Part shown: positions 3,412-62,189 of the stretch, in pieces
How the letters are laid out: each line of letters starts with the position of its first letter
Numbering within the stretch: the first letter of the stretch is position 1
Virus record (IMG/VR): IMGVR_UViG_3300013099_000002
Span: 1 to 64,000 of that record
Length of the DNA: 64,000 bases
Source of the DNA: a virus
Direction: 5' to 3' (one strand)
The notes under the pieces: model-generated
Told to the model about the DNA's origin: nothing
What the model saw: the letters and a program-made list of their open reading frames with translations, nothing else
The model's database searches: none
Translations under genes and position numbers: made by a program

Positions 3412-3632
3412 GGTTTTATCTCCTTAATCAGTACGGTGGTTTGCTTGGCATTTAGATGCATACGAAAGTCACACAACCAAACCCCGAAGAAGGATAAAGA
3501 AAAAATAAGACCATCCTTATTAGCTTCGGTGCATTGCCATAATACTTTTTCAAGTGATAGGCCTTTAAATAAAGTACATAGCTCAAAGACATCACCAACT
3601 TTCATAGCGTAATATTGTTTTAAAGTAATCAT
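3408..3632 (-). CDS. hypothetical protein
   Basis: 74 aa, ATGA-coupled on both sides. Confidence 0.55.
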   Translation of the reverse strand: MITLKQYYAMKVGDVFELCTLFKGLSLEKVLWQCTEANKDGLIFSLSFFGVWLCDFRMHLNAKQTTVLIKEIKP

Positions 3633-4387
3633 GCGCCTTTACCGCAAATTAAGGATAAGTCCGGCATAGGTGTTTCAAGTTTGGGTATCCCCGAAAGAAT
3701 AGCCCCCAGTGTCCGTTTAGCCATAACAGTTGTACCTACATCCAAGTGTATTGAAACATAGCCATTTTCCGCAGGGTCAACATTCAACCCAGCTATCTTT
3801 AATTCAGAAATAAATTTCAACACATTCCCCTCAACCCGAACAGATAATGTAGTGTTCTTATACCGTGCCGCTACCTTTAGGTCTGTAGATAACCCAACCA
3901 CATGATATACCGAAGAACCTGTGGTTGAAGATACAGGTTGATACATGGTTGTAGCATTAGATAAAGCTATCTTTTTATCTTTCATGTGAGCGGCAAAATC
4001 GACACCTGCAACCAAAGGTTTATTTTTTATTAAACCCCCTTCCGACATTGGTAGTACTGAAGGTGCTTTAGGTAATTTTGATGGTGATGTAAATTTTACA
4101 GAACCATTTTGCTTAACATAGGTTAATGCTTCAGCAAGTGCCTTTTTTATCTTATAACTTAATGCCTCCTTAGATGCTGAACCCAAGGTGCCAGATGTTG
4201 CCATGGATAAGGCACCAGCTTTAACAGGTACGGTTTGAATCACTATACCATCAAATAAGAACTGGATAGTATTGGTGGTTGTTTTTAAAGTACCGCCACA
4301 TTTAAGCAGTTCTTCGTATATGGCTTCCGAACAATTGAAAGCCTGTATTAGTTTAATTGGATTTTTTTGTTTCACGATAATAGCCAT
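3629..4387 (-). CDS. hypothetical protein
   Basis: 252 aa; first gene after promoter 4431-4458; SD within CCACGGAGG. Confidence 0.7.
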   Translation of the reverse strand: MAIIVKQKNPIKLIQAFNCSEAIYEELLKCGGTLKTTTNTIQFLFDGIVIQTVPVKAGALSMATSGTLGSASKEALSYKIKKALAEALTYVKQNGSVKFTSPSKLPKAPSVLPMSEGGLIKNKPLVAGVDFAAHMKDKKIALSNATTMYQPVSSTTGSSVYHVVGLSTDLKVAARYKNTTLSVRVEGNVLKFISELKIAGLNVDPAENGYVSIHLDVGTTVMAKRTLGAILSGIPKLETPMPDLSLICGKGA

Positions 4388-4430
4388 TAGTTTTTCCTCC
4401 GTGGTATAAAATAATTAGATAACAGTTTTT

Positions 4431-4458
4431 ATTGTACGCATATAATTTTAATTGTCAA
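4431..4458 (-). promoter_or_regulatory. conserved early promoter
   Basis: TTGACA-16-TACAAT. Confidence 0.85.
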
Positions 4459-4464
4459 ATTTAT

Positions 4465-5094
4465 TTACCAGATAGATAAAGAGGATTGCATACAGTCAAC
4501 TTCAAAGGTTGAGCTGAATTGCTTGGTTGGAATTGCTGATACATTATTTTTTCCAAAATCAGAATCATAGAAAGAATAATCCTTTGTTGCCTTTACTTTG
4601 TTTATGCCGAATTCTTCATGCAGGTATTCAATCTGTTTTTGTGACTCTACAGCCTTCTTACAGTAGTTATCCCGAACGTAAGTAACTGCCTCCTTATCAT
4701 TGGTTACGTTTTTATATAAAGCGGCTAATACAAGCCCTGTTCGACCATGCCCACCTATACAACCTATATGTATTTTCTGATTTGCAATCAATTGCACTGA
4801 GAGCCATTCAATTAACTTTTTAAATTCAACTGTATCTTTAGGGGTTCCCATATCCTGAATGAAGAATCCTATTTCGTGTCCAGCACTCCAAGGGTATTCC
4901 TTTTCAGTTAATTTCATGGAGGTGTCAAGACCTACATAAATATCAGCGTCAAGGTGTATTGGTTTGGAACACGAACCACCATAGACAAAGTAATTTTTAC
5001 CTTCAATAGTGATAGGTAGTGCTGGGTGTGATTCACAACACCGTTTGTGGGTAGAGGTGAAACCTATAGAGGTTGCCGGTTTTTTATAACTCAT
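4465..5094 (-). CDS. Cys-based (PTP/dual-specificity) phosphatase
   Basis: CX5R P-loop IGCIGGHGRTG; downstream AVESQKQ Q-loop. Confidence 0.85.
   Translation of the reverse strand: MSYKKPATSIGFTSTHKRCCESHPALPITIEGKNYFVYGGSCSKPIHLDADIYVGLDTSMKLTEKEYPWSAGHEIGFFIQDMGTPKDTVEFKKLIEWLSVQLIANQKIHIGCIGGHGRTGLVLAALYKNVTNDKEAVTYVRDNYCKKAVESQKQIEYLHEEFGINKVKATKDYSFYDSDFGKNNVSAIPTKQFSSTFEVDCMQSSLSIW
4783..4796. repeat. 14-bp inverted repeat, copy 1 (in PTP CDS)
   Basis: TGCAATCAATTGCA. Confidence 0.9.
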
Positions 5095-5096
5095 AG

Positions 5097-6158
5097 TTAT
5101 GCCCTTATCATTTTTACTTTTTTAACTTTCTCAATTGGTGTGACTTGGAACCAAGTTTTGTTTTCTTCGTTCAAGGCCAAATCAGCTTGAAGTTGTTTTA
5201 TTTCTTGTGCCTTTTTAATAGTGGCAAGTTTATCGGCATGGTTTTTAGGTACCCCATATTTTTTAACTTGTTCCTTTTGTAGAGAAACATAATTTTGAAC
5301 CGCCCCTAATTGTTCAACCATAAACCAATCCACGTAGCCGGAAACAGATTCGCCTAATATGGCTTGTGCCTGTAATCGGAAGTCTCGGTGTGTATTATTT
5401 ATAAAGGGGGATTCATTACCATCAATTAATTGAGGTATCTGCCCAGCACGTTGTACATCTAAAATCTTTACAATCTCATAAGAATCGTAAGATGAGAACA
5501 ACATTCCTTTATTAAATATAGGCCCGTTATTGTGACAAAGAGTGAAGGCGGTATCCATCATCATTTCAGCAGAATAAACCCCTGTAACGAAGTTGTGGAG
5601 GCATTGAGTCACCTCCCCCCATGCCTTACCACCATACCCACCGGAAAAACTACCTTCATTAAATAAATCCAATAAGTGTCCGGTGTATCTCCCAAGTATA
5701 AATAAGTGGGTAGTTTCTCTAAATCGTTTTACGGCACCGGTGGAGGATTCATGGCTTATTGATTTAGTAAATTGAATAGGGTCATCACCATGTTTTTTAG
5801 CCGCCCCTGACCAGTCGTAGTCATCGTAAACATGCCTTGATTCCCGTGTACAAATCAAAAGTAAATAATAGAACATACGAACCGCTGATTTAGATAATTC
5901 CTCTTGGTAACGCATAACCAGAATTAACTTATCTCCTAGTGGTTCGTGTTTTCCTGTGGAGGCCATCACTTCAGATAAAATATGATTAGTTAAATAAAAA
6001 TTTATTGCCTCTTCTTCTGGCACAGCATATTTAGATTGATTATCCATGTAATCATTCATAGCAGTTACAAGCCCATCAACCGGCACCATGCTTTTATCTA
6101 AGTGTTGAGTCATTGGCCTATTCATTTGCATTGCCAATGTATCTTGTTCAAGTTTCAT
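5097..6158 (-). CDS. hypothetical 353-aa, probably helical protein
   Basis: Own promoter and CACGGAGG SD; conserved-looking motifs CTRESRH, GGYGGKAW, CHNNG. Confidence 0.75.
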   Translation of the reverse strand: MKLEQDTLAMQMNRPMTQHLDKSMVPVDGLVTAMNDYMDNQSKYAVPEEEAINFYLTNHILSEVMASTGKHEPLGDKLILVMRYQEELSKSAVRMFYYLLLICTRESRHVYDDYDWSGAAKKHGDDPIQFTKSISHESSTGAVKRFRETTHLFILGRYTGHLLDLFNEGSFSGGYGGKAWGEVTQCLHNFVTGVYSAEMMMDTAFTLCHNNGPIFNKGMLFSSYDSYEIVKILDVQRAGQIPQLIDGNESPFINNTHRDFRLQAQAILGESVSGYVDWFMVEQLGAVQNYVSLQKEQVKKYGVPKNHADKLATIKKAQEIKQLQADLALNEENKTWFQVTPIEKVKKVKMIRA

Positions 6159-6190
6159 TTAGACCTCCGTGAATTGCATATCTAAGACTT

Positions 6191-6218
6191 ATTGTACTGA
6201 TATAATTTTAATTGTCAA
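6191..6218 (-). promoter_or_regulatory. conserved early promoter
   Basis: TTGACA-16-TACAAT. Confidence 0.85.
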
Positions 6219-6225
6219 ATTTAAT

Positions 6226-6714
6226 TTACATTAGCCTAACAAGGTCTCTAATATCATCCACATTTAGTTTTTCTACATAATCCATTTGCTGTTTAGTTTC
6301 AACTGCGTGTGATAGGTATTCAAGTCGGGTAAATTGTACCGGTTCTAAATGAGGATACATCACCTTAACCAAACAGGCTATAAATAATCCAGTTCTACCA
6401 ATTCCACCCAGGCAACCAACATAAATAGCTTCACCTTTATGCATAGCTACCATTGTTTTTATTAACCCACGCCTTAACTGCTCAACATTAGGAACCGAAT
6501 AATCTTCAGTCGGAACACTAACATCAAAAGGTAGGTTTATTTCTTCTGCCATTTTCACACCAAACTTATCAGATGGTCTTGCCATATAGGGGCCTCCAAA
6601 TACGAATGCCGCCCTACCACTTGGTAATTGAAAGACAATATACCCGTTATGCCCACCTTGGATATAATCACCCTCATAGGGGTACAAAGTGTTAAATGCT
6701 TCTAATAGTGCCAT
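6226..6714 (-). CDS. second Cys-based (PTP/DSP) phosphatase
   Basis: VGCLGGIGRTG P-loop; AVETKQQ Q-loop. Confidence 0.85.
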   Translation of the reverse strand: MALLEAFNTLYPYEGDYIQGGHNGYIVFQLPSGRAAFVFGGPYMARPSDKFGVKMAEEINLPFDVSVPTEDYSVPNVEQLRRGLIKTMVAMHKGEAIYVGCLGGIGRTGLFIACLVKVMYPHLEPVQFTRLEYLSHAVETKQQMDYVEKLNVDDIRDLVRLM

Positions 6715-6805
6715 TGGTTTTTTCCTCAGTTGTTTTATATGAATACGTTGCTGGGTACAAATTGGTAAAGCTTTGCGCCATCATTTACTCCGTTTAGTAT
6801 TTCTA

Positions 6806-6833
6806 ATTGTACTTGAATAATTTTAATTGTCAA
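6806..6833 (-). promoter_or_regulatory. conserved early promoter
   Basis: TTGACA-16-TACAAT. Confidence 0.85.
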
Positions 6834-7244
6834 TTATCGTTTAGCTGAACAATCTGGACAAGGTATCATACCTCGCACATCCCCCTTACCATTACAGCGT
6901 TTGCATCCATCCCCATAACAAACAGGGCATTCTTCATAAACCGTTATTCTTTTGGAATCATCACACGAATTACATTTTATTAAATGTAAGCCTATTAGAG
7001 TGCGTCTCTTGACTAAAAAAACCCAATCCTTATATCGCATATTGCCGTGGAAGTGTTTGGTCTTTACAGCCAACCACAAGGCTTCTCGTAATTGAATCAA
7101 AGTATCTTTTGAACAATCACCAAAACCTAGTAAGGTTGCCTTGTGTAAAACGTCATCAGTAATGTTCAAGTCAGATAACCTGTCAACTTCATTCCGCTTC
7201 TGCATTCGCTTTTTCCTTTTCGGCTTCACGCCATAATTTACCAC
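6834..7244 (-). CDS. protein with C-terminal DnaJ-type CxxCxGxG zinc finger
   Basis: CNSC..CPVCYGDG-CKRCNGKG..CPDC; true start may be the internal MQKRN. Confidence 0.65.
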   Translation of the reverse strand: MVNYGVKPKRKKRMQKRNEVDRLSDLNITDDVLHKATLLGFGDCSKDTLIQLREALWLAVKTKHFHGNMRYKDWVFLVKRRTLIGLHLIKCNSCDDSKRITVYEECPVCYGDGCKRCNGKGDVRGMIPCPDCSAKR

Positions 7245-7503
7245 GTAGAATTTTCAGTGTAAGTGGTGCATCAATTACCGCCTTAACCACCTCCTTTGTA
7301 ATATCCACATTATCACCAGCAGAAACTCTCACATTAGGTAAAATTTCTGTTTGATTCCTGTCAGTAATTTCGTAGATTTTATCAATACTTTTTCCAATTA
7401 CTTTAAGCTTATATCGTTTGCTGTGGTAAATCCGTTCAACCTTTACCTGAATATCATTAATATAAAAATCTGAAGTTGAGTATAAAGATATTGCTAAGGC
7501 CAT
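7189..7503 (-). CDS. CsrA/RsmA-like RNA-binding protein (apparently two CsrA-like halves)
   Basis: C-terminal VKAVIDAPLTLKILRGKLW aligns by eye with CsrA VRIGVNAPKEVSVHREEIY (A-P and the R44 equivalent kept); N-terminus resembles CsrA strands 1-3. Confidence 0.55.
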   Translation of the reverse strand: MALAISLYSTSDFYINDIQVKVERIYHSKRYKLKVIGKSIDKIYEITDRNQTEILPNVRVSAGDNVDITKEVVKAVIDAPLTLKILRGKLWREAEKEKANAEAE

Positions 7504-7504
7504 G

Positions 7505-7954
7505 TTATGCTCCCAATTTTAATAAAGTTACTGCTATGTTGGTTAGCTTCCAAGTGGAACCACCAACCTTCCCCTTAGCACTTTCAACTTTTTCAATCAA
7601 ACCTTTGTGTTGAAGTACCATCATTTTGCTTGCAGTCAAACTGCTTTTTTCTTTTACTTGACCAGCCACGGTTCCCGTTAAAATATCTTCAGGGTATCTT
7701 GATGCAATTACCCCTAAATAGATTGATAAGTTGCTACCTTTTTCCGGCAATACAACCTTAGTTCTTGGTACAGTGTGCATGATAATACCGTTAGCGGTTT
7801 CTTCATACACAACCCGTAAATACCCACATATACATTTAAGGGTTAAAGTTTGTTGTGATTCCTGCTCATACCAAGCTTGATTAGCACGGCAATGAGGGCA
7901 TGTTTCAAAGCTCATAATTTTACCTAATTTAGTGTTTGACTCCATTAAGTTCAT
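7505..7954 (-). CDS. Zn-ribbon plus winged-HTH protein
   Basis: CPHC..CICG; C-terminal TGTVAGQV..LTASKMMVLQHKGLIEK wHTH pattern. Confidence 0.55.
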   Translation of the reverse strand: MNLMESNTKLGKIMSFETCPHCRANQAWYEQESQQTLTLKCICGYLRVVYEETANGIIMHTVPRTKVVLPEKGSNLSIYLGVIASRYPEDILTGTVAGQVKEKSSLTASKMMVLQHKGLIEKVESAKGKVGGSTWKLTNIAVTLLKLGA

Positions 7955-7972
7955 TATACCAGTCCTTGCCGG

Positions 7973-10105
7973 TTATCCCAGCGTTTTGTGAATGAGTGCA
8001 TGGTTACTTATTGATGTAGGAACCGTGTTAAATTCCTTACCGGATTTTGCCGCCATAGATAAAAGTTTAATTGTTAGCTCCGAAGAACCAATGTTTTTTT
8101 CAAGTTCAGGTGTTTGTTCTATGTACCCATCTGCATCAAGAACATCCCCCAAAGTTGTTAGTTGTTGTGCCACCTCCCAACCCTCTGTAACCAAAGAATC
8201 CAATAAATCCTTATCGGTTTCGGCAGGTAGTAGCAAACAATAGTCTTTTTTGGATGATGAGACATGCGTGTTAAGGGTTTCTATTTTTTTACGCATAACC
8301 TCATAGGGAGAATCAAAAACATCCCCAAACGCGCCCATAAAGGCTTTATCAGAATCAGACAAGTAGGAGTGTTTGAGGGTCATATCCAAAAACACCTTGA
8401 CACCTTCCCCTATCGTAAGGTTTAAAAGTAATGATTGTATCCCGTCATCACCAGATAAATTGAAAGTATCAATGTAAGTATCTTCAGTTAAGGAAAGTGC
8501 TTCTCCATTATAATCAGTTATTCGGTTAATAGTTCCTTTTTGTTTAGTTATGCAATTCAATAATGATTTAGCTTCATTTGATAATTCCCCCATCGTAATA
8601 GGAACCTCAATACCAAACCAAACATTGCCAGTTTTTCCATCAATAGTAATTAAATCACCTTCTTTAACCGCACATTTACCAAGCTTCCAAGCCCCGTAGC
8701 CAAGTTCGTGTAGTTCGGTGCAACCAACCACACAAGACTTATTTAAACCCCTTGCCACAACAGCGGCATGTGAAGTTGCTCCACCGGTTTGAGTTAATAT
8801 GCCAACGCAAGCCTCCATTGCCTCAATATCATCCGGTGTAGTTTCCTTTGCAATTAAGATTGCATCCCCAGTGCAATTGATTGCAAACTCAGCAGATAAG
8901 GCAACGATACCGGAAACAACTGAACCCGAAGCAGGTATTCCTGTGCCGGTAGGTTTCACTTTAAATGAAGGATTAATGTTTGCCTGTTGCAGTAATTCAA
9001 ACTCTTTATAGGATACCCGTTTAAGTGCTTCTGTTTTAGTTATTATCTTTTCAGAATACAGGTCATAAGCAATTTTAAATGCAGCTTGGGCAGACCGTTT
9101 ACCGTTTCTGGTTTGAAGGATATAAACCTTCCCATTTTCTATAGTAAATTCAATGTCCTGCATATCTTTATTGTAAGCTTCCAATCGTTGTGCAATTTCC
9201 AACAATTCCAGCTCCACCGTTTCATTCCATTCAGCCATTTTATATAGTGGGTCAGGTGTTCGGATACCGGCAACAACATCTTCGCCTTGTGCATTAACCA
9301 AGTATTCTCCAACCGTCCCAATATCGCCCGTATTAGCACACCTAGTAAACAATACACCTGAACATGAATTATCATTCAAGTTACCAAAAACCATGGCTTG
9401 TATCGTTACAGCGGTACCCCATTCATCTGAATAGCCATGCATTTTACGATAATGTTTGGCGCGTGGATTATTCCAGCTATCCCAAACCGCCACAATAGAA
9501 TCACGTAGCTGGTCATAAAGTGGAACCTCAAAGCAAGAATCCACCTGAAAATGATTACCATAAATTGCTTCATAATCAGTAACCACCTTAGTTAAATCAT
9601 CTTCGGTCAAATCCGAATCTTCAAGAACCCCTTTTGTCTTGGATAGTGCATCTTCAAACAGTTCAGAATCAATACCGTAAGCGGTGGTTCCCATCATTTG
9701 CATTAGTCTACGTTTAGAATCCAACATAGCCCTGCGCCCCAAGCGTTCCTCCCAAAATGGTTCCGATTCCTCAGTAAGCCCAACATTCAATATAGTGTCC
9801 ATCATGCCAGGCATTGATACCCTTGCCCCAGACCGAACGGACAATAAAGGATGGAACCCATATAATTCTTTTAGCCAAGTTATCTGCTCAATAACATGGG
9901 TCATAGTTTCATTAATTATTTCTGCTTTTTTAAATTTAGGTGCATTCAAATAGTGCATACAGGCGGTAGTTGGAATAATGAATCCTGCCGGTACCGGTAT
10001 TTTTAGGTTTGCAATTTCACATAAACCAGCACCCTTTCCACCCAATGTATTGATTTGAGCTTTGGTACCAGATGCGCCATTTTTACTAAAGTTAAATATT
10101 TTCAT
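7973..10105 (-). CDS. ppdK: pyruvate phosphate dikinase-like protein lacking the PEP/pyruvate-binding barrel
   Basis: LGGKGAGL, LLSVRSGARVSMPGMMDTILNVG, QGEDVVAGIRTP, DIEFTIE..LQTR; phospho-His motif GGATSHAAVVARG; last ~205 aa unrelated to the PPDK C-domain. Confidence 0.85.
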   Translation of the reverse strand: MKIFNFSKNGASGTKAQINTLGGKGAGLCEIANLKIPVPAGFIIPTTACMHYLNAPKFKKAEIINETMTHVIEQITWLKELYGFHPLLSVRSGARVSMPGMMDTILNVGLTEESEPFWEERLGRRAMLDSKRRLMQMMGTTAYGIDSELFEDALSKTKGVLEDSDLTEDDLTKVVTDYEAIYGNHFQVDSCFEVPLYDQLRDSIVAVWDSWNNPRAKHYRKMHGYSDEWGTAVTIQAMVFGNLNDNSCSGVLFTRCANTGDIGTVGEYLVNAQGEDVVAGIRTPDPLYKMAEWNETVELELLEIAQRLEAYNKDMQDIEFTIENGKVYILQTRNGKRSAQAAFKIAYDLYSEKIITKTEALKRVSYKEFELLQQANINPSFKVKPTGTGIPASGSVVSGIVALSAEFAINCTGDAILIAKETTPDDIEAMEACVGILTQTGGATSHAAVVARGLNKSCVVGCTELHELGYGAWKLGKCAVKEGDLITIDGKTGNVWFGIEVPITMGELSNEAKSLLNCITKQKGTINRITDYNGEALSLTEDTYIDTFNLSGDDGIQSLLLNLTIGEGVKVFLDMTLKHSYLSDSDKAFMGAFGDVFDSPYEVMRKKIETLNTHVSSSKKDYCLLLPAETDKDLLDSLVTEGWEVAQQLTTLGDVLDADGYIEQTPELEKNIGSSELTIKLLSMAAKSGKEFNTVPTSISNHALIHKTLG
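8872..8885. repeat. 14-bp inverted repeat, copy 2 (in PPDK CDS)
   Basis: TGCAATTGATTGCA. Confidence 0.9.
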
Positions 10106-10134
10106 GTTTCCTCCGTGGTGTTAATGTAGGTCTA

Positions 10135-10162
10135 ATTATACTTACATAATTTTAATTGTCAA
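10135..10162 (-). promoter_or_regulatory. conserved early promoter
   Basis: TTGACA-16-TATAAT. Confidence 0.85.
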
Positions 10163-11153: not shown

Positions 11154-12657
11154 TATAGTTCCCTTAGTTGTTTTAATATAGATTTAATAAAGCCACAAAA
11201 TGCATAAGTTACCCATATAGGCCATAAAACCACAACAATAACCCCATCTACCCAATCAGGTTTAGGGTACCCAGACCTTTTATTTTCGTAACAATGTCGC
11301 TTGTTTAATAAGATGGCAACAATACACCCTATAAATAAATAATGAATTATCATAGTTCTACCTTTTTAGCTTTAACAAATAAATTATTTTCAAAAATAAG
11401 TTCGTAGTTCGGTACTGCATCACCTTCAATTAGTTGTTCAAATAAATCACTTATGCCAGTGTATTCGATACCACCATAAGCAAACATGTATTCAGCCCGA
11501 ACTACAACCACATTACTGAATACACTCAAACATAATTCTGGGTTTGTTTTTATCTCCTTATCCTTAATAGTAAACATCCCAACTCTTTTACTCCATTGCT
11601 CGGCATCCTTGCCTTTTGCAATGAGTTTAATATCAGCTACCGTTATCGCCATCGGATTTTTCAACAACTTCGTCAACTTTATTTGCTTCAGCTAATGCCT
11701 TTTGTTCGTTACGTGCCTTTTCAAATTCATGTTCAGTCGAAGCCACAATCATTACAGCACTGGCTGTATTTAAAAATCTACCTTCTGCTATTTGCACAAC
11801 ACCGAAGCGTTTAAATTCTCTACAAGCCGCCTGTTTGGTGTAAGCAGATACCATGTGATTAACGGTAAAGCTTTTTATTCCATCCTCTAACGCCATCGCT
11901 GGAAATATACCAGTTACCACAAATTCCTGCATGTCCTTTTTTACTTTATTTTTACTCACGTTCTTAGCCTCGCTATTTCGATTAAAAAGTTTAATTCATC
12001 TAAAAGTTTTTTGTTTCCACCCATTGACCTATCGACACAACTTAACCCTCGGATGAAAGAAGGTAAATTGTGACCACCATTAGCCCAAGCATGTTGAACA
12101 AGTATAGCTAGTGGTGGGTATTTTTCTATTTCAGATGCATACCTATCAGTGAGTCGTTTTTTCTTTAGAATCCGTACTGCCACATTGACCTCCACAGTGA
12201 GGAAGAATCATATTACCCTTTGAACAACCCTCATGTTCATATCCTACGGGGTCAGGTGCCATGATACCAGATTCTTTACGTACATCTTTAGCAAGTTCAT
12301 TTTCGGGTCGTAAAGCACCCTGTAAGCCACATTCTGCACATCGTAAAAACACGCCCCCAGCTTCAACAACTTCACTGATAGCTATTATCTCTTCTTGACA
12401 AGATTTACAGGGTTGTGAAGCTGGTACCTTCTCACATTCCAATACTGGTTGCCATGGGCTTATATGCCCCTTATACCCCTGCTTTATTACAGACCTTTCT
12501 GCCCTTTTGACTTCACCTCGGTTAGCGTAAAGCCATTGCCCATTATCAAGTTGTGCTTTTTTTAATACACCTATAGTCAACTCATCACCATCACCGCCAC
12601 AACGTAGACAGAAAGTTAAGTGAGGCTCAAGGCCTCCTTCTTTACTAATTGGAATGT

Positions 12658-12845: not shown

Positions 12846-12857
12846 GCCATCCATGGC
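12846..12857 (-). promoter_or_regulatory. CsrA/RsmA-type stem-loop GCC-AUGGAU-GGC
   Basis: Matches CANGGANG with hexaloop, 4 nt upstream of an ACGGAG SD. Confidence 0.6.
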
Positions 12858-13025: not shown

Positions 13026-13037
13026 GCCATCCGTGGC
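13026..13037 (-). promoter_or_regulatory. CsrA/RsmA-type stem-loop GCC-ACGGAU-GGC
   Basis: CACGGAUG core in a hairpin upstream of an RBS. Confidence 0.6.
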
Positions 13038-13300
13038 GGTTATTCCATGTTACCCACGGGCATAATGAACAGGTCTTTCATACATGCCGTTATTATTACG
13101 AAAGATTGTAATATAATGTCCGTATTTTGTGCCGTCATCATGGGTAGTTGAAGCCGATTCCCCGTACCCGATATTCAAGCCAAATTCCCAAGAATCAACC
13201 AACCCTTCTGAATCCAAAGATTGATTTAATGTTTCAAACCAGTTTTGTTTAATTTGAGTAGCCATGATATTTAATCCGTTTTGTTGTTGAGTGTGAGTTA

Positions 13301-13328
13301 ATTATACATGAATAATTTTAATTGTCAA
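13301..13328 (-). promoter_or_regulatory. conserved early promoter
   Basis: TTGACA-16-TATAAT. Confidence 0.85.
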
Positions 13329-13335
13329 ATTTAAT

Positions 13336-13349
13336 TGCAATCAATTGCA
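13336..13349. repeat. 14-bp inverted repeat, copy 3
   Basis: TGCAATCAATTGCA. Confidence 0.9.
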
Positions 13350-14767: not shown

Positions 14768-14781
14768 TGCAATTGATTGCA
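14768..14781. repeat. 14-bp inverted repeat, copy 4
   Basis: TGCAATTGATTGCA. Confidence 0.9.
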
Positions 14782-23786: not shown

Positions 23787-24257
23787 TTACCCTCTCAGTG
23801 CAATTGATTGCAATTGTTCTTCACGTTCTTTACAGTGTTTGATTACCACCTTACATTGGTCTATTGACATTGAGCCAATATGACAGGCATGGTGGTCAAG
23901 TCCGGTTTTGCTACGCAACCATGCATAAGCTTTACCTCTGGATAGTTGTTTTTTCTTCCAAATATTATCGAAGAATGAGTGTGCCTGCATTCGCCATTGC
24001 CTTAGTTCTACATTGGCAAGATTCCCTAATGGTTCCTCAGTATTAGGATGACATCCTACACGGGCATCACATGGCTCACAGACAAAAAATATCTTTGTCC
24101 ACAAATCCTTACGGTGGGGGTAAACATCCTTACCTGTGGCTCTCACAGCAGAATTACCGCAATAGTTGCACGTTACTTCGCCTACTTTTGGCTCCTTTAC
24201 ACCTGCATCCAACATAGCTTGTCTTAAATTATTCATATTAGTCTCTATAAAATCCAA
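23787..24257 (-). CDS. DUF3268-like zinc-finger protein
   Basis: CNYCG..VYPHR..CEPCDARVGCH..PLG.LAN.ELR..R..AH..FD.IW..CHIG. Confidence 0.75.
   Translation of the reverse strand: MDFIETNMNNLRQAMLDAGVKEPKVGEVTCNYCGNSAVRATGKDVYPHRKDLWTKIFFVCEPCDARVGCHPNTEEPLGNLANVELRQWRMQAHSFFDNIWKKKQLSRGKAYAWLRSKTGLDHHACHIGSMSIDQCKVVIKHCKEREEQLQSIALRG
23799..23812. repeat. 14-bp inverted repeat, copy 7
   Basis: TGCAATTGATTGCA. Confidence 0.9.
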
Positions 24258-39928: not shown

Positions 39929-39940
39929 ACCATCCATGGT
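39929..39940 (-). promoter_or_regulatory. CsrA/RsmA-type stem-loop ACC-AUGGAU-GGU
   Basis: CANGGANG hairpin upstream of a GGAG SD. Confidence 0.6.
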
Positions 39941-40112: not shown

Positions 40113-40140
40113 ATTATACGCATATAATTTTAATTGTCAA
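40113..40140 (-). promoter_or_regulatory. conserved early promoter
   Basis: TTGACA-16-TATAAT. Confidence 0.85.
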
Positions 40141-40152
40141 ATTTAATTTTAA

Positions 40153-40728
40153 TCATATTTCACTATTTGCAATCAATTGCAATTTTTCTATATCTTTAGG
40201 ATGTTTCTTAGCCCACTCTGTTAAAGCGGTTGCATTAACTTTAGGGACTTTTACATACCCCAATAAACCCAAACCAAATTGAGCTAAACAAAAAGCATCG
40301 ACCTCATTATCAGTCCCTTCTAGGTGCCAACGCTTGTAAGTTTCCAACATCATAACATCTTTCTTTACATTACCTTTACCAGAAACGAACTTTTTTAATG
40401 AAGTTGGGGGTATATCTAAAATAAGCACTCGGTATAAATGCAACGTGTATTTAATCACTGTACCCACTTCAACCAGCGTTACCAGTGTGTGCTTATTAGC
40501 GAACCCGTAGCCCTCAATTATGCAAACATCAGGCTCATACTTATCCAGTAATTCATAAAGCCTGTCTGCGAATGCTTTTAATCGTGGCATCCCTTTTAGT
40601 GTTGGAAAGTTCCATTCCTGCTTATACAGTAAATTTATTTTTTCTTCCCCGTGTTTCAATTCCAAGATAACCACGCCTGTTTTAGTTGAAGTATCCAACC
40701 CTAAAACAATCATGTTAAGTACTTCCAT
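40153..40728 (-). CDS. ruvC: RuvC-like Holliday junction resolvase
   Basis: LGLDTSTKTG, IIEGY, PTSLKKFVSGKGN..K, DNEVDA. Confidence 0.9.
   Translation of the reverse strand: MEVLNMIVLGLDTSTKTGVVILELKHGEEKINLLYKQEWNFPTLKGMPRLKAFADRLYELLDKYEPDVCIIEGYGFANKHTLVTLVEVGTVIKYTLHLYRVLILDIPPTSLKKFVSGKGNVKKDVMMLETYKRWHLEGTDNEVDAFCLAQFGLGLLGYVKVPKVNATALTEWAKKHPKDIEKLQLIANSEI
40168..40181. repeat. 14-bp inverted repeat, copy 11
   Basis: TGCAATCAATTGCA. Confidence 0.9.
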
Positions 40729-44005: not shown

Positions 44006-44019
44006 TGCAATTGATTGCA
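44006..44019. repeat. 14-bp inverted repeat, copy 12
   Basis: TGCAATTGATTGCA. Confidence 0.9.
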
Positions 44020-49577: not shown

Positions 49578-49591
49578 TGCAATCAATTGCA
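49578..49591. repeat. 14-bp inverted repeat, copy 13
   Basis: TGCAATCAATTGCA. Confidence 0.9.
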
Positions 49592-62175: not shown

Positions 62176-62189
62176 TGCAATCAATTGCA
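62176..62189. repeat. 14-bp inverted repeat, copy 16
   Basis: TGCAATCAATTGCA. Confidence 0.9.

Follow-up and report, generated by a model that had tools for sequence, protein, structure and literature searches.

A CsrA-like gene of a virus found in sediment poses a simple question: how does a protein of this family, normally a short chain that works as a dimer, come to be 104 amino acids (aa) long, and what would it bind in that form? The DNA analyzed here (the window) is the first 64 kb of the 89,837-bp virus record IMGVR_UViG_3300013099_000002 (direct terminal repeats; 37.9% G+C). DNA of this virus is present in sediment-metagenome sequencing runs, among which no RNA run was listed, and all 143 open reading frames (ORFs) called in the 89.8-kb genome lie on the minus strand. 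The gene in question occupies positions 7189 to 7503 (minus strand). A first-pass annotation, made from the sequence, had proposed that it encodes a phage CsrA/RsmA-like protein with two CsrA-like halves. The reading frame is real, running from ATG to a TGA stop at 7189 to 7191, and its product does exceed the usual CsrA in length, the complete canonical phage CsrA frames recovered in this work measuring 57 to 72 aa. CsrA serves as a model of how proteins recognize RNA: its subunits intertwine in a homodimer that bridges paired GGA motifs with its two sites. Taking all the evidence together, we lean slightly toward the explanation that the phage protein joins a truncated and a complete CsrA unit in one chain and acts as a one-site post-transcriptional regulator.

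The protein belongs to a divergent branch of the CsrA superfamily

The CsrA family PF02599 is the sole relevant Pfam match of the protein, with residues 66 to 94 aligned to profile positions 23 to 51 (E = 0.0034; 17.7 bits). An exhaustive phmmer search over 1.84 billion cluster representatives found 143 relatives, nearly all of them 90 to 105 aa long, and an alignment of 135 relatives (A1) was used for the profile, Pfam, and AlphaFold2 steps. PF02599 was matched at an E value of 0.01 or less by 116 of these 135 sequences (best E value, 1.7e-9), and two longer relatives scored above the Pfam cutoff, with 37.6 bits (fusion protein P0049) and 28.1 bits. When the A1 profile was compared with all sequences of the Protein Data Bank (PDB), all 11 matches were CsrA, RsmA, RsmE, RsmN, or RsmF; the best had an E value of 4.7e-5, and RsmN/RsmF was matched at 0.02. 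Searched as a single sequence with phmmer, the protein gave chance matches only in the PDB. PHROGs held no informative family for it, and PADLOC returned none.

The two halves were also compared by hhalign with a canonical CsrA profile, a small one built from the Escherichia coli protein and seven recovered phage CsrAs. The C-terminal half matched it with a probability of 93% (E = 2.6e-7). In the N-terminal half, residues 2 to 38 were colinear with CsrA residues 1 to 37 apart from a single one-residue gap (E = 1.3e-4; probability, 54%), and the resemblance to CsrA strands that the first-pass annotation had seen at the N terminus is thus weaker but measurable.

Canonical CsrAs, 45 to 100% identical to E. 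coli CsrA, were found by tblastn with the E. coli sequence in 88 phage records, and no member of the present family was among them. The family is widespread among tailed phages of a lineage that carries a pyruvate phosphate dikinase (PPDK) gene, where it numbers about 140 clusters at 50% identity, and its members occur in phages of Rhodobacter and Rhizobium. A search of 185,579 genomes of bacteria and archaea yielded no relatives, and thus no prophage copies, an absence consistent with a strictly lytic lineage. Some members have already been annotated automatically by JGI as "sRNA-binding carbon storage regulator CsrA," and ORF99 of Vibrio phage vB_VneS_J26, located between the PPDK gene ORF98 and the phosphatase gene ORF100, was annotated as CsrA without further analysis (PMC12038007). 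Given the family profile, the Pfam matches of the relatives, and the absence of the family from the 88 records with canonical CsrAs, the protein almost certainly has a CsrA-superfamily fold and represents a distinct, very divergent branch of it.

Two unequal CsrA units are predicted to form one body

AlphaFold2, run on the monomer with A1, returned a compact model with a predicted local distance difference test (pLDDT) score of 94.3 and a predicted template modeling (pTM) score of 0.82. DSSP assigned nine strands (residues 2 to 8, 12 to 15, 18 to 27, 30 to 36, 42 to 47, 52 to 55, 58 to 62, 72 to 78, and 85 to 87) followed by a C-terminal helix (residues 88 to 103), with no helix before residue 88. 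According to DSSP and hhalign, the N-half (residues 1 to 38; positions 7390 to 7503, minus strand) corresponds to a truncated CsrA unit that has strands β1 to β4 and is without β5 and the helix. The C-half (residues 39 to 104; positions 7192 to 7389, minus strand) corresponds, according to VIA-align and hhalign, to a complete CsrA protomer with strands β1′ to β5′ and the C-terminal helix, and it bears A79, P80, and R87. VIA-align placed the whole RsmA chain 1vpz_A on model residues 39 to 98 (57 of 57 residues; root mean square deviation [rmsd], 2.1 Å; Z = 4.4) and 60 residues of CsrA 5dmb_D on residues 42 to 104 (rmsd, 2.0 Å), and it aligned 50 to 51 residues of RsmN/RsmF on residues 1 to 91 (rmsd, 2.3 Å; Z = 4.0 to 4.2). 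In the model, the C-half is thus a complete CsrA protomer in an extended shape that is normal only inside a dimer. The strands of the N-half lie at nearly identical residue numbers to those of β1 to β4 in CsrA, and the sequence makes it likely that this half arose by duplication.

The first-pass annotation had suggested checking the CsrA assignment with profile and Foldseek searches. The profile search led to the CsrA family, as described above, but no significant PDB match to the model came from Foldseek, which ranked RsmF 50th, a result to be expected because a CsrA protomer is not globular alone. The top VIA-align matches, domain I of class II fusion proteins and a CcsBA domain (Z = 5 to 8.7), reflect a generic β-sandwich likeness and not kinship.

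In the CsrA dimer, β5 of each subunit contacts β2 of the other chain, and β1 contacts β4 of the other chain. We looked for the equivalent pairs by mean-field direct coupling analysis (DCA), which was underpowered (104 columns, 155 family sequences). Y14 and W91 were coupled twice as strongly as any other pair, and the two best antiparallel ladders among the 36 strand pairs were β2 with β5′ (i + j = 100) and β4 with β1′ (i + j = 77). Such ladders would be predicted for an N-half that occupies the position of the partner subunit. The connection from β4 to β1′ is a turn of 4 to 5 residues. In the arrangement that the model suggests, the truncated unit would be joined by this short turn to the complete one and would fill the position that the second subunit has in the CsrA homodimer, so that one chain would form the two-sheet sandwich. 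We consider it probable that the protein is such a single-chain pseudo-dimer with one intact RNA-binding face. The profile, the predicted structure, and the covariation thus uphold a two-unit architecture, as first proposed; however, the halves are unequal, β1 to β4 being followed by β1 to β5 plus a helix.

One putative RNA-binding face is conserved

Each RNA-binding face of CsrA is made up of β1 of one subunit and β5 of the other. With the residue register taken from the PDB matches of the family profile and from hhalign to canonical CsrA, only β1 and β5′ can build such a face in the phage protein, because the partner strand for β1′ does not exist. Of the two symmetric faces, one would therefore survive, the N-half having no β5. 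The surviving face would comprise M1, L3, and I5 of the N-terminal β1 together with K74, A79, P80, L83, I85, R87, and L90 of the C-terminal β4′/β5′ region, and no other part of the family is as conserved (M1, 94%; L3, 100%; L/I5, 91%; K/R74, 91%; A79, 99%; P80, 98%; I/V85, 96%; R87, 97%). A79, P80, I/V85, and R87 are equivalent to A36, P37, V42, and R44 of CsrA, respectively. The family has accordingly kept the RNA-contact set of CsrA, i.e., the leucine pair of β1, the A-P dipeptide, the hydrophobic residues of β5, and the arginine equivalent to R44. The first-pass annotation had recognized the C-terminal pattern with its A-P and arginine, and it is to this segment that PF02599 aligns.

In β1′, the family has a conserved acidic residue, D48, where canonical β1 has an arginine. 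Outside the canonical RNA face, the family also conserves a motif of its own, E-I-L-P-x-V-x-V-S-A-G. Since the N-half is without β5, the conservation lies on the β1/β5′ face, and β1′ carries D48, we infer that the protein would bind a single GGA-type RNA site per molecule. That it actually serves as a GGA-binding post-transcriptional regulator is, in our estimate, an evenly balanced proposition. Engineered CsrA heterodimers with one site still bind RNA, without the avidity that comes from dual-site bridging; such a single-site heterodimer was reportedly made by Mercante et al. in 2009. A natural one-site protein should favor single sites and be titrated poorly by multisite sponge RNAs.

Candidate RNA targets in the window

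The core of high-affinity CsrA ligands is CA-N-GGA-UG with the GGA in a loop, and three hairpins of the window match it, all of them intergenic and on the coding strand. They are GCCA-UGGA-UGGC (positions 12847 to 12856, minus strand), which lies 11 nt upstream of an ACGGAG Shine-Dalgarno sequence, GCCA-CGGA-UGGC (13027 to 13036, minus strand), and ACCA-UGGA-UGGU (39930 to 39939, minus strand). In the window, CCANGGATGG occurs 3 times, versus 0.29 expected. A fourth GGA-loop hairpin, GGCA-AGGA-TGCC (11604 to 11615, minus strand), was observed inside the coding region of the ORF at 11350 to 11676.

A second group of candidates is formed by the leaders of early genes. The leader motif AACGGA(T/G)TAAA is present in 16 copies in the window, versus 2.6 expected; in the example AACGGATTAAA (13270 to 13280, minus strand), the GGA stands at the Shine-Dalgarno position. 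Of 142 ORFs, 20 have ACGGA between −20 and −4, where 1.7 would be expected. Among the 14 leaders that follow consensus promoters, 13 are G poor and contain AC-GGA just once, at the Shine-Dalgarno position, and a protein with one binding site would be well matched to such leaders. The best candidate targets would be the single-GGA early leaders (AACGGAUUAAA, with ACGGA at the Shine-Dalgarno position) and the three CCAYGGAUGG hairpins, although the choice among them and the effect of binding (repression, decay, or activation) can only be inferred.

The RNA motifs cited in the first-pass annotation, i.e., the hairpins and the ACGGA leaders, are real and enriched. GGA-loop hairpins on the coding strand show no general excess in the window, and Rfam detected no family in it, and thus no CsrB/RsmY-like sponge RNA. 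Related phages share A-N-GGA only, as CACGGAGG, CATGGAGG, and CAAGGAGG where the protein is intact, and TAAGGATC, also of the form A-N-GGA, occurs in a Vibrio phage whose protein is degenerate. A shared "CA-N-GGA" motif was considered and rejected, as it failed for the window phage and only A-N-GGA was common to all, the Vibrio phage with the degenerate protein included. A phage "Csr regulon" is a reasonable hypothesis, and that the ACGGA leaders and hairpins are targets of the CsrA-like protein is possible but doubtful.

Several observations weigh against a one-chain, one-site CsrA that acts on these RNAs. With 17.7 bits, the protein stays under the PF02599 gathering threshold of 27 bits, and the CsrA equivalogs of NCBIfam were not reached (TIGR00202 and NF002469, 13.9 versus 70.1 bits and 12.8 versus 73 bits). 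The match of the N-half to CsrA is moderate only, and hhalign detected no match between the N-half and the C-half (probability, 1%). The arginines of CsrA β1 are replaced (L7 and Y8). Strand packing was judged from alignment ranges and from the underpowered covariation described above, not from coordinates. The third ladder expected, β1 with β4′, was not seen by DCA; β1 is near-invariant and so cannot covary. As for the targets, the leader motif belongs to a repeated promoter cassette and doubles as a Shine-Dalgarno sequence, and its enrichment consequently needs no CsrA-like binder. Moreover, the exact leader and hairpin motifs are missing from the related loci and phages.

The gene is part of a conserved, probably early operon

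The CsrA-like gene is the third gene after a consensus sigma-70-type promoter (10135 to 10162, minus strand; 12 of 12 hexamer matches in the promoter scan). The first gene of the operon (7973 to 10105, minus strand) encodes a PPDK-like protein of 710 aa, similar to phage proteins annotated as pyruvate phosphate dikinases. Next comes a gene for a 149-aa Zn-ribbon and winged-helix-like protein (7505 to 7954, minus strand; weak Pfam hints), which is syntenic in the loci L004 to L006. With GGGAG as its Shine-Dalgarno sequence, the CsrA-like ATG stands 1 nt past the TAA stop of this gene. Downstream lies a Zn-finger gene (6834 to 7205, minus strand), which encodes 123 aa from its likely start, the ATG at 7205 behind AAGGA, or 136 aa from the GTG at 7244. 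The next copy of the same promoter (6806 to 6833, minus strand) marks the end of the operon. No strong terminator-like site was found on the minus strand from the operon promoter to this next copy at 6833 by the promoter and terminator scan; the sole terminator-like site in the operon is a weak one of 5 bp inside the PPDK gene (8924 to 8936).

Both promoters belong to a repeated cassette. TTGACAATTAAAATTAT has 14 copies in the window, versus 1.9 expected, one of them in the promoter at 10162 to 10135; the 14 sites, all on the minus strand, include 10146 to 10162, 6817 to 6833, 13312 to 13328, and 40124 to 40140. In the cassette, TTGACAATTAAAATTAT is followed by 5 more spacer bases, TATAAT or TACAAT, and a G-poor leader of 25 to 35 nt that ends in ACGGA(T/G), after which a small ORF often follows. 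Because a consensus sigma-70-type promoter heads the operon, the CsrA-like protein is probably an early product of the host RNA polymerase, and it would be made together with the PPDK-like, Zn-ribbon/winged-helix, and Zn-finger proteins.

The gene order (PPDK, 149-aa protein, CsrA-like protein, Zn-finger protein, phosphatase, 353-aa protein, second phosphatase, two more genes, and an 806-aa protein) recurs in three IMG/VR contigs, with CsrA-like proteins only 39 to 44% identical to that of the window, and most of it is kept in Rhodobacter phage RcZahn. The wider block at 3629 to 10162, which also holds the CX5R-type phosphatase genes at 6226 to 6714 and 4465 to 5094 and the gene of a 353-aa unknown protein at 5097 to 6158, is syntenic across distant phages. 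In Vibrio phage vB_VhaS-MS03 (OR102881.1; locus L002, 4300 to 4788), the PPDK and phosphatase genes flank a degenerate family member of 162 aa, recognized with an E value of 7e-5 in a comparison with a small set. Its A-P has become G-S and its key arginine an asparagine, changes which suggest that this branch may have lost RNA binding.

The CsrA-like domain is also found fused to homologues of either adjacent protein. In P0089, a homologue of the 149-aa protein precedes it, and P0134, P0167, P0086, P0127, and P0049 carry a homologue of the downstream protein after it. Because of these fusions in other phages, the CsrA-like protein would most likely work with its two neighbors in post-transcriptional regulation at ribosome-binding regions. 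As judged from its sequence, the 149-aa protein is tentatively a Zn-ribbon joined to a winged helix, and its fused form in P0089 gave HTH_IclR/MarR matches.

The downstream protein and a possible RNase partnership

The core of the downstream protein has a conserved His-Gly-Asn-x-Arg-Tyr motif with N55 and R57 as its invariant residues, and its C terminus carries a CXXCXGXG zinc finger (Pfam DnaJ_CXXCXGXG, E = 0.004; NCBIfam anti-TRAP, E = 0.0012; both below the cutoff). Its AlphaFold2 model is poor (pLDDT, 60). The VIA-align matches of this pLDDT-60 model were mostly toxins of the RelE/ParE superfamily (Z = 3 to 7), among them MqsR (5.9), ParE (4.5), colicin E5 (4.5), and RelE (4.0), with further matches to colicin D, BrnT, YoeB, HigB, YafQ, and CdiA-CT. 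Foldseek placed the same toxin families first, with E values all above 1 and hence not significant, and the ESM Atlas gave DUF4258 as a structure lead. The N-terminal domain is thus possibly RelE/ParE-like, as far as the model allows.

Such a neighbor opens another explanation, in which the CsrA-like protein would be the RNA-recognition subunit or the restraining partner of a possibly RelE-fold protein, with mRNAs cut or silenced at GGA Shine-Dalgarno regions. The RegB protein of phage T4 offers an analogy, being an early-expressed RNase of the RelE/YoeB fold that depends on the RNA-binding protein S1 and cleaves early mRNAs at GGAG in their Shine-Dalgarno regions (PMC3014915). Besides the five fusions to the downstream domain, the toxin-led VIA-align list, the DUF4258 lead, and the conserved motif with its invariant N55 and R57, the gene arrangement favors this idea, since in all 4 phages examined the 3′ end of the CsrA-like gene is shared with the downstream ORF, which each time lies in the +1 frame. 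However, the model of the neighbor reaches a pLDDT of 60 only, its Z scores do not exceed the range of 3 to 7, and its Foldseek E values are above 1; furthermore, no RNase family is matched by the sequence of the neighbor, and the fold includes ParE-type proteins, which are not RNases. We therefore regard this explanation as rather unlikely.

Other explanations for the CsrA-like protein

The protein might instead manipulate the Csr/Rsm system of the host, either by competing with host CsrA for mRNA or by soaking up or resisting sponges of the CsrB/RsmY type. Phages commonly carry canonical CsrA genes (the 88 records above), for which a role in host manipulation has been proposed (PMC8450108, PMC7366521). 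The RNA-binding signature of the family is conserved, and the poor titration expected of a one-site protein would fit resistance to multisite sponges. On the other side, the family occurs in phages of Rhodobacter and Rhizobium, and, to our knowledge, many Alphaproteobacteria have no chromosomal csrA. It also stands at a great distance from host-like CsrAs, whereas canonical phage copies have 45 to 100% identity to the E. coli protein, and its gene is tied to a phage-specific operon and to fusion partners, all of which makes manipulation of the host distinctly unlikely. Antagonism by heterodimerization with host CsrA, another form that the first-pass suggestion of a CsrA antagonist could take, is argued against by the model, because the predicted single-chain fold is self-complemented.

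A further possibility is an ordinary dimeric CsrA with an N-terminal extension, whose chains would swap halves to form a larger assembly with two or more RNA faces. CsrA proteins are obligate intertwined dimers, and covariation is blind to the difference between intrachain contacts and those of a swapped homodimer, a limit that also counts against the single-chain pseudo-dimer. Nevertheless, the monomer prediction is confident and compact (pTM, 0.82), and the β4-β1′ turn of 4 to 5 residues, with its covariation in hairpin register (i + j = 77), ties the N-half to its own β1′; a swapped assembly is thus very unlikely. Least probable of all is a protein that has kept the CsrA fold and lost RNA binding to become a protein-protein adaptor in the PPDK/phosphatase module, for although the MS03 protein is retained in synteny despite the loss of A-P and the arginine, and E-I-L-P-x-V-x-V-S-A-G is conserved away from the RNA face, 135 diverged sequences have kept precisely the RNA-contact positions of CsrA nearly invariant, which would be difficult to account for if RNA were not bound.

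Comparison of the proposed one-site CsrA with known systems

With the CsrA/RsmA/RsmE proteins (PF02599, COG1551), the phage protein shares the protomer of β1 to β5 plus a helix, the A-P dipeptide, the R44-equivalent R87, the hydrophobic pattern of β5, and a β1 that starts at residue 2. It differs from them in its length (104 aa versus about 60 to 75 aa), its extra truncated unit, its phage operon and fusion partners, and its escape from tblastn with E. coli CsrA; the prediction is also of a monomer that complements itself and has one RNA face, whereas they are symmetric homodimers with two. RsmN/RsmF of Pseudomonas aeruginosa (PDB 4kji and 4k59) is likewise a natural rewiring of the CsrA fold that has kept the RNA-binding arginine. 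However, its helix sits between β2 and β3 and it still forms homodimers, whereas the phage protein has no internal helix and is a probable partial tandem repeat. The engineered single-site heterodimer mentioned above also reportedly has a CsrA body with a single functional RNA-binding surface; that construct was made in the laboratory from two chains, whereas here a natural single chain would have had its second site removed by deletion of β5. T4 RegA and the RegB/S1 pair resemble the protein by functional analogy only, as early phage factors that act at the ribosome-binding regions of early mRNAs; RegA has no sequence or fold relationship to it, and the likeness to RegB rests on the RelE lead of the neighbor.

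Canonical phage-encoded CsrAs are known (PMC7366521, PMC8450108), but no tandem or single-chain CsrA was found in the literature searched, nor is one mentioned in these two reviews. If the proposed architecture is correct, the family represents a new evolutionary route, in which a partial tandem duplication with loss of β5 rebuilt the CsrA body from one chain. It would provide a natural test of one-site binding and a compact monomeric GGA-binding module. The fusions to possibly RelE-like zinc-finger proteins and to winged-helix proteins would point to an unexplored phage system of post-transcriptional control.

A possible three-part control unit and a repeated near-palindrome

Extended to its neighbors, the proposed one-site CsrA could be a component of a three-part phage control unit that drives the switch from early to middle expression, a proposal that we consider unlikely as a whole. 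In such a unit, the one-chain CsrA would read the single ACGGA Shine-Dalgarno motif of the early leaders; the RelE-fold protein with its anti-TRAP-type zinc finger would be steered to or from those mRNAs, in a GGA-directed inactivation of mRNA like that by RegB with S1; and the Zn-ribbon/winged-helix protein would bind DNA, maybe at 18 palindromes of the TGCAATCAATTGCA type. For TGCAATCAATTGCA, the role of an operator or middle-promoter element is a candidate assignment, and the 149-aa protein encoded at 7505 to 7954 is the candidate binder.

This near-palindrome has 18 sites with at most 1 mismatch, versus 0.06 expected, in both orientations and mostly just upstream of genes. Examples are found at 13336 to 13349, 14768 to 14781, 23799 to 23812, 40168 to 40181, 44006 to 44019, 49578 to 49591, and 62176 to 62189. 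At three of the consensus promoters, TGCAATCAATTGCA lies directly upstream of the −35 box.

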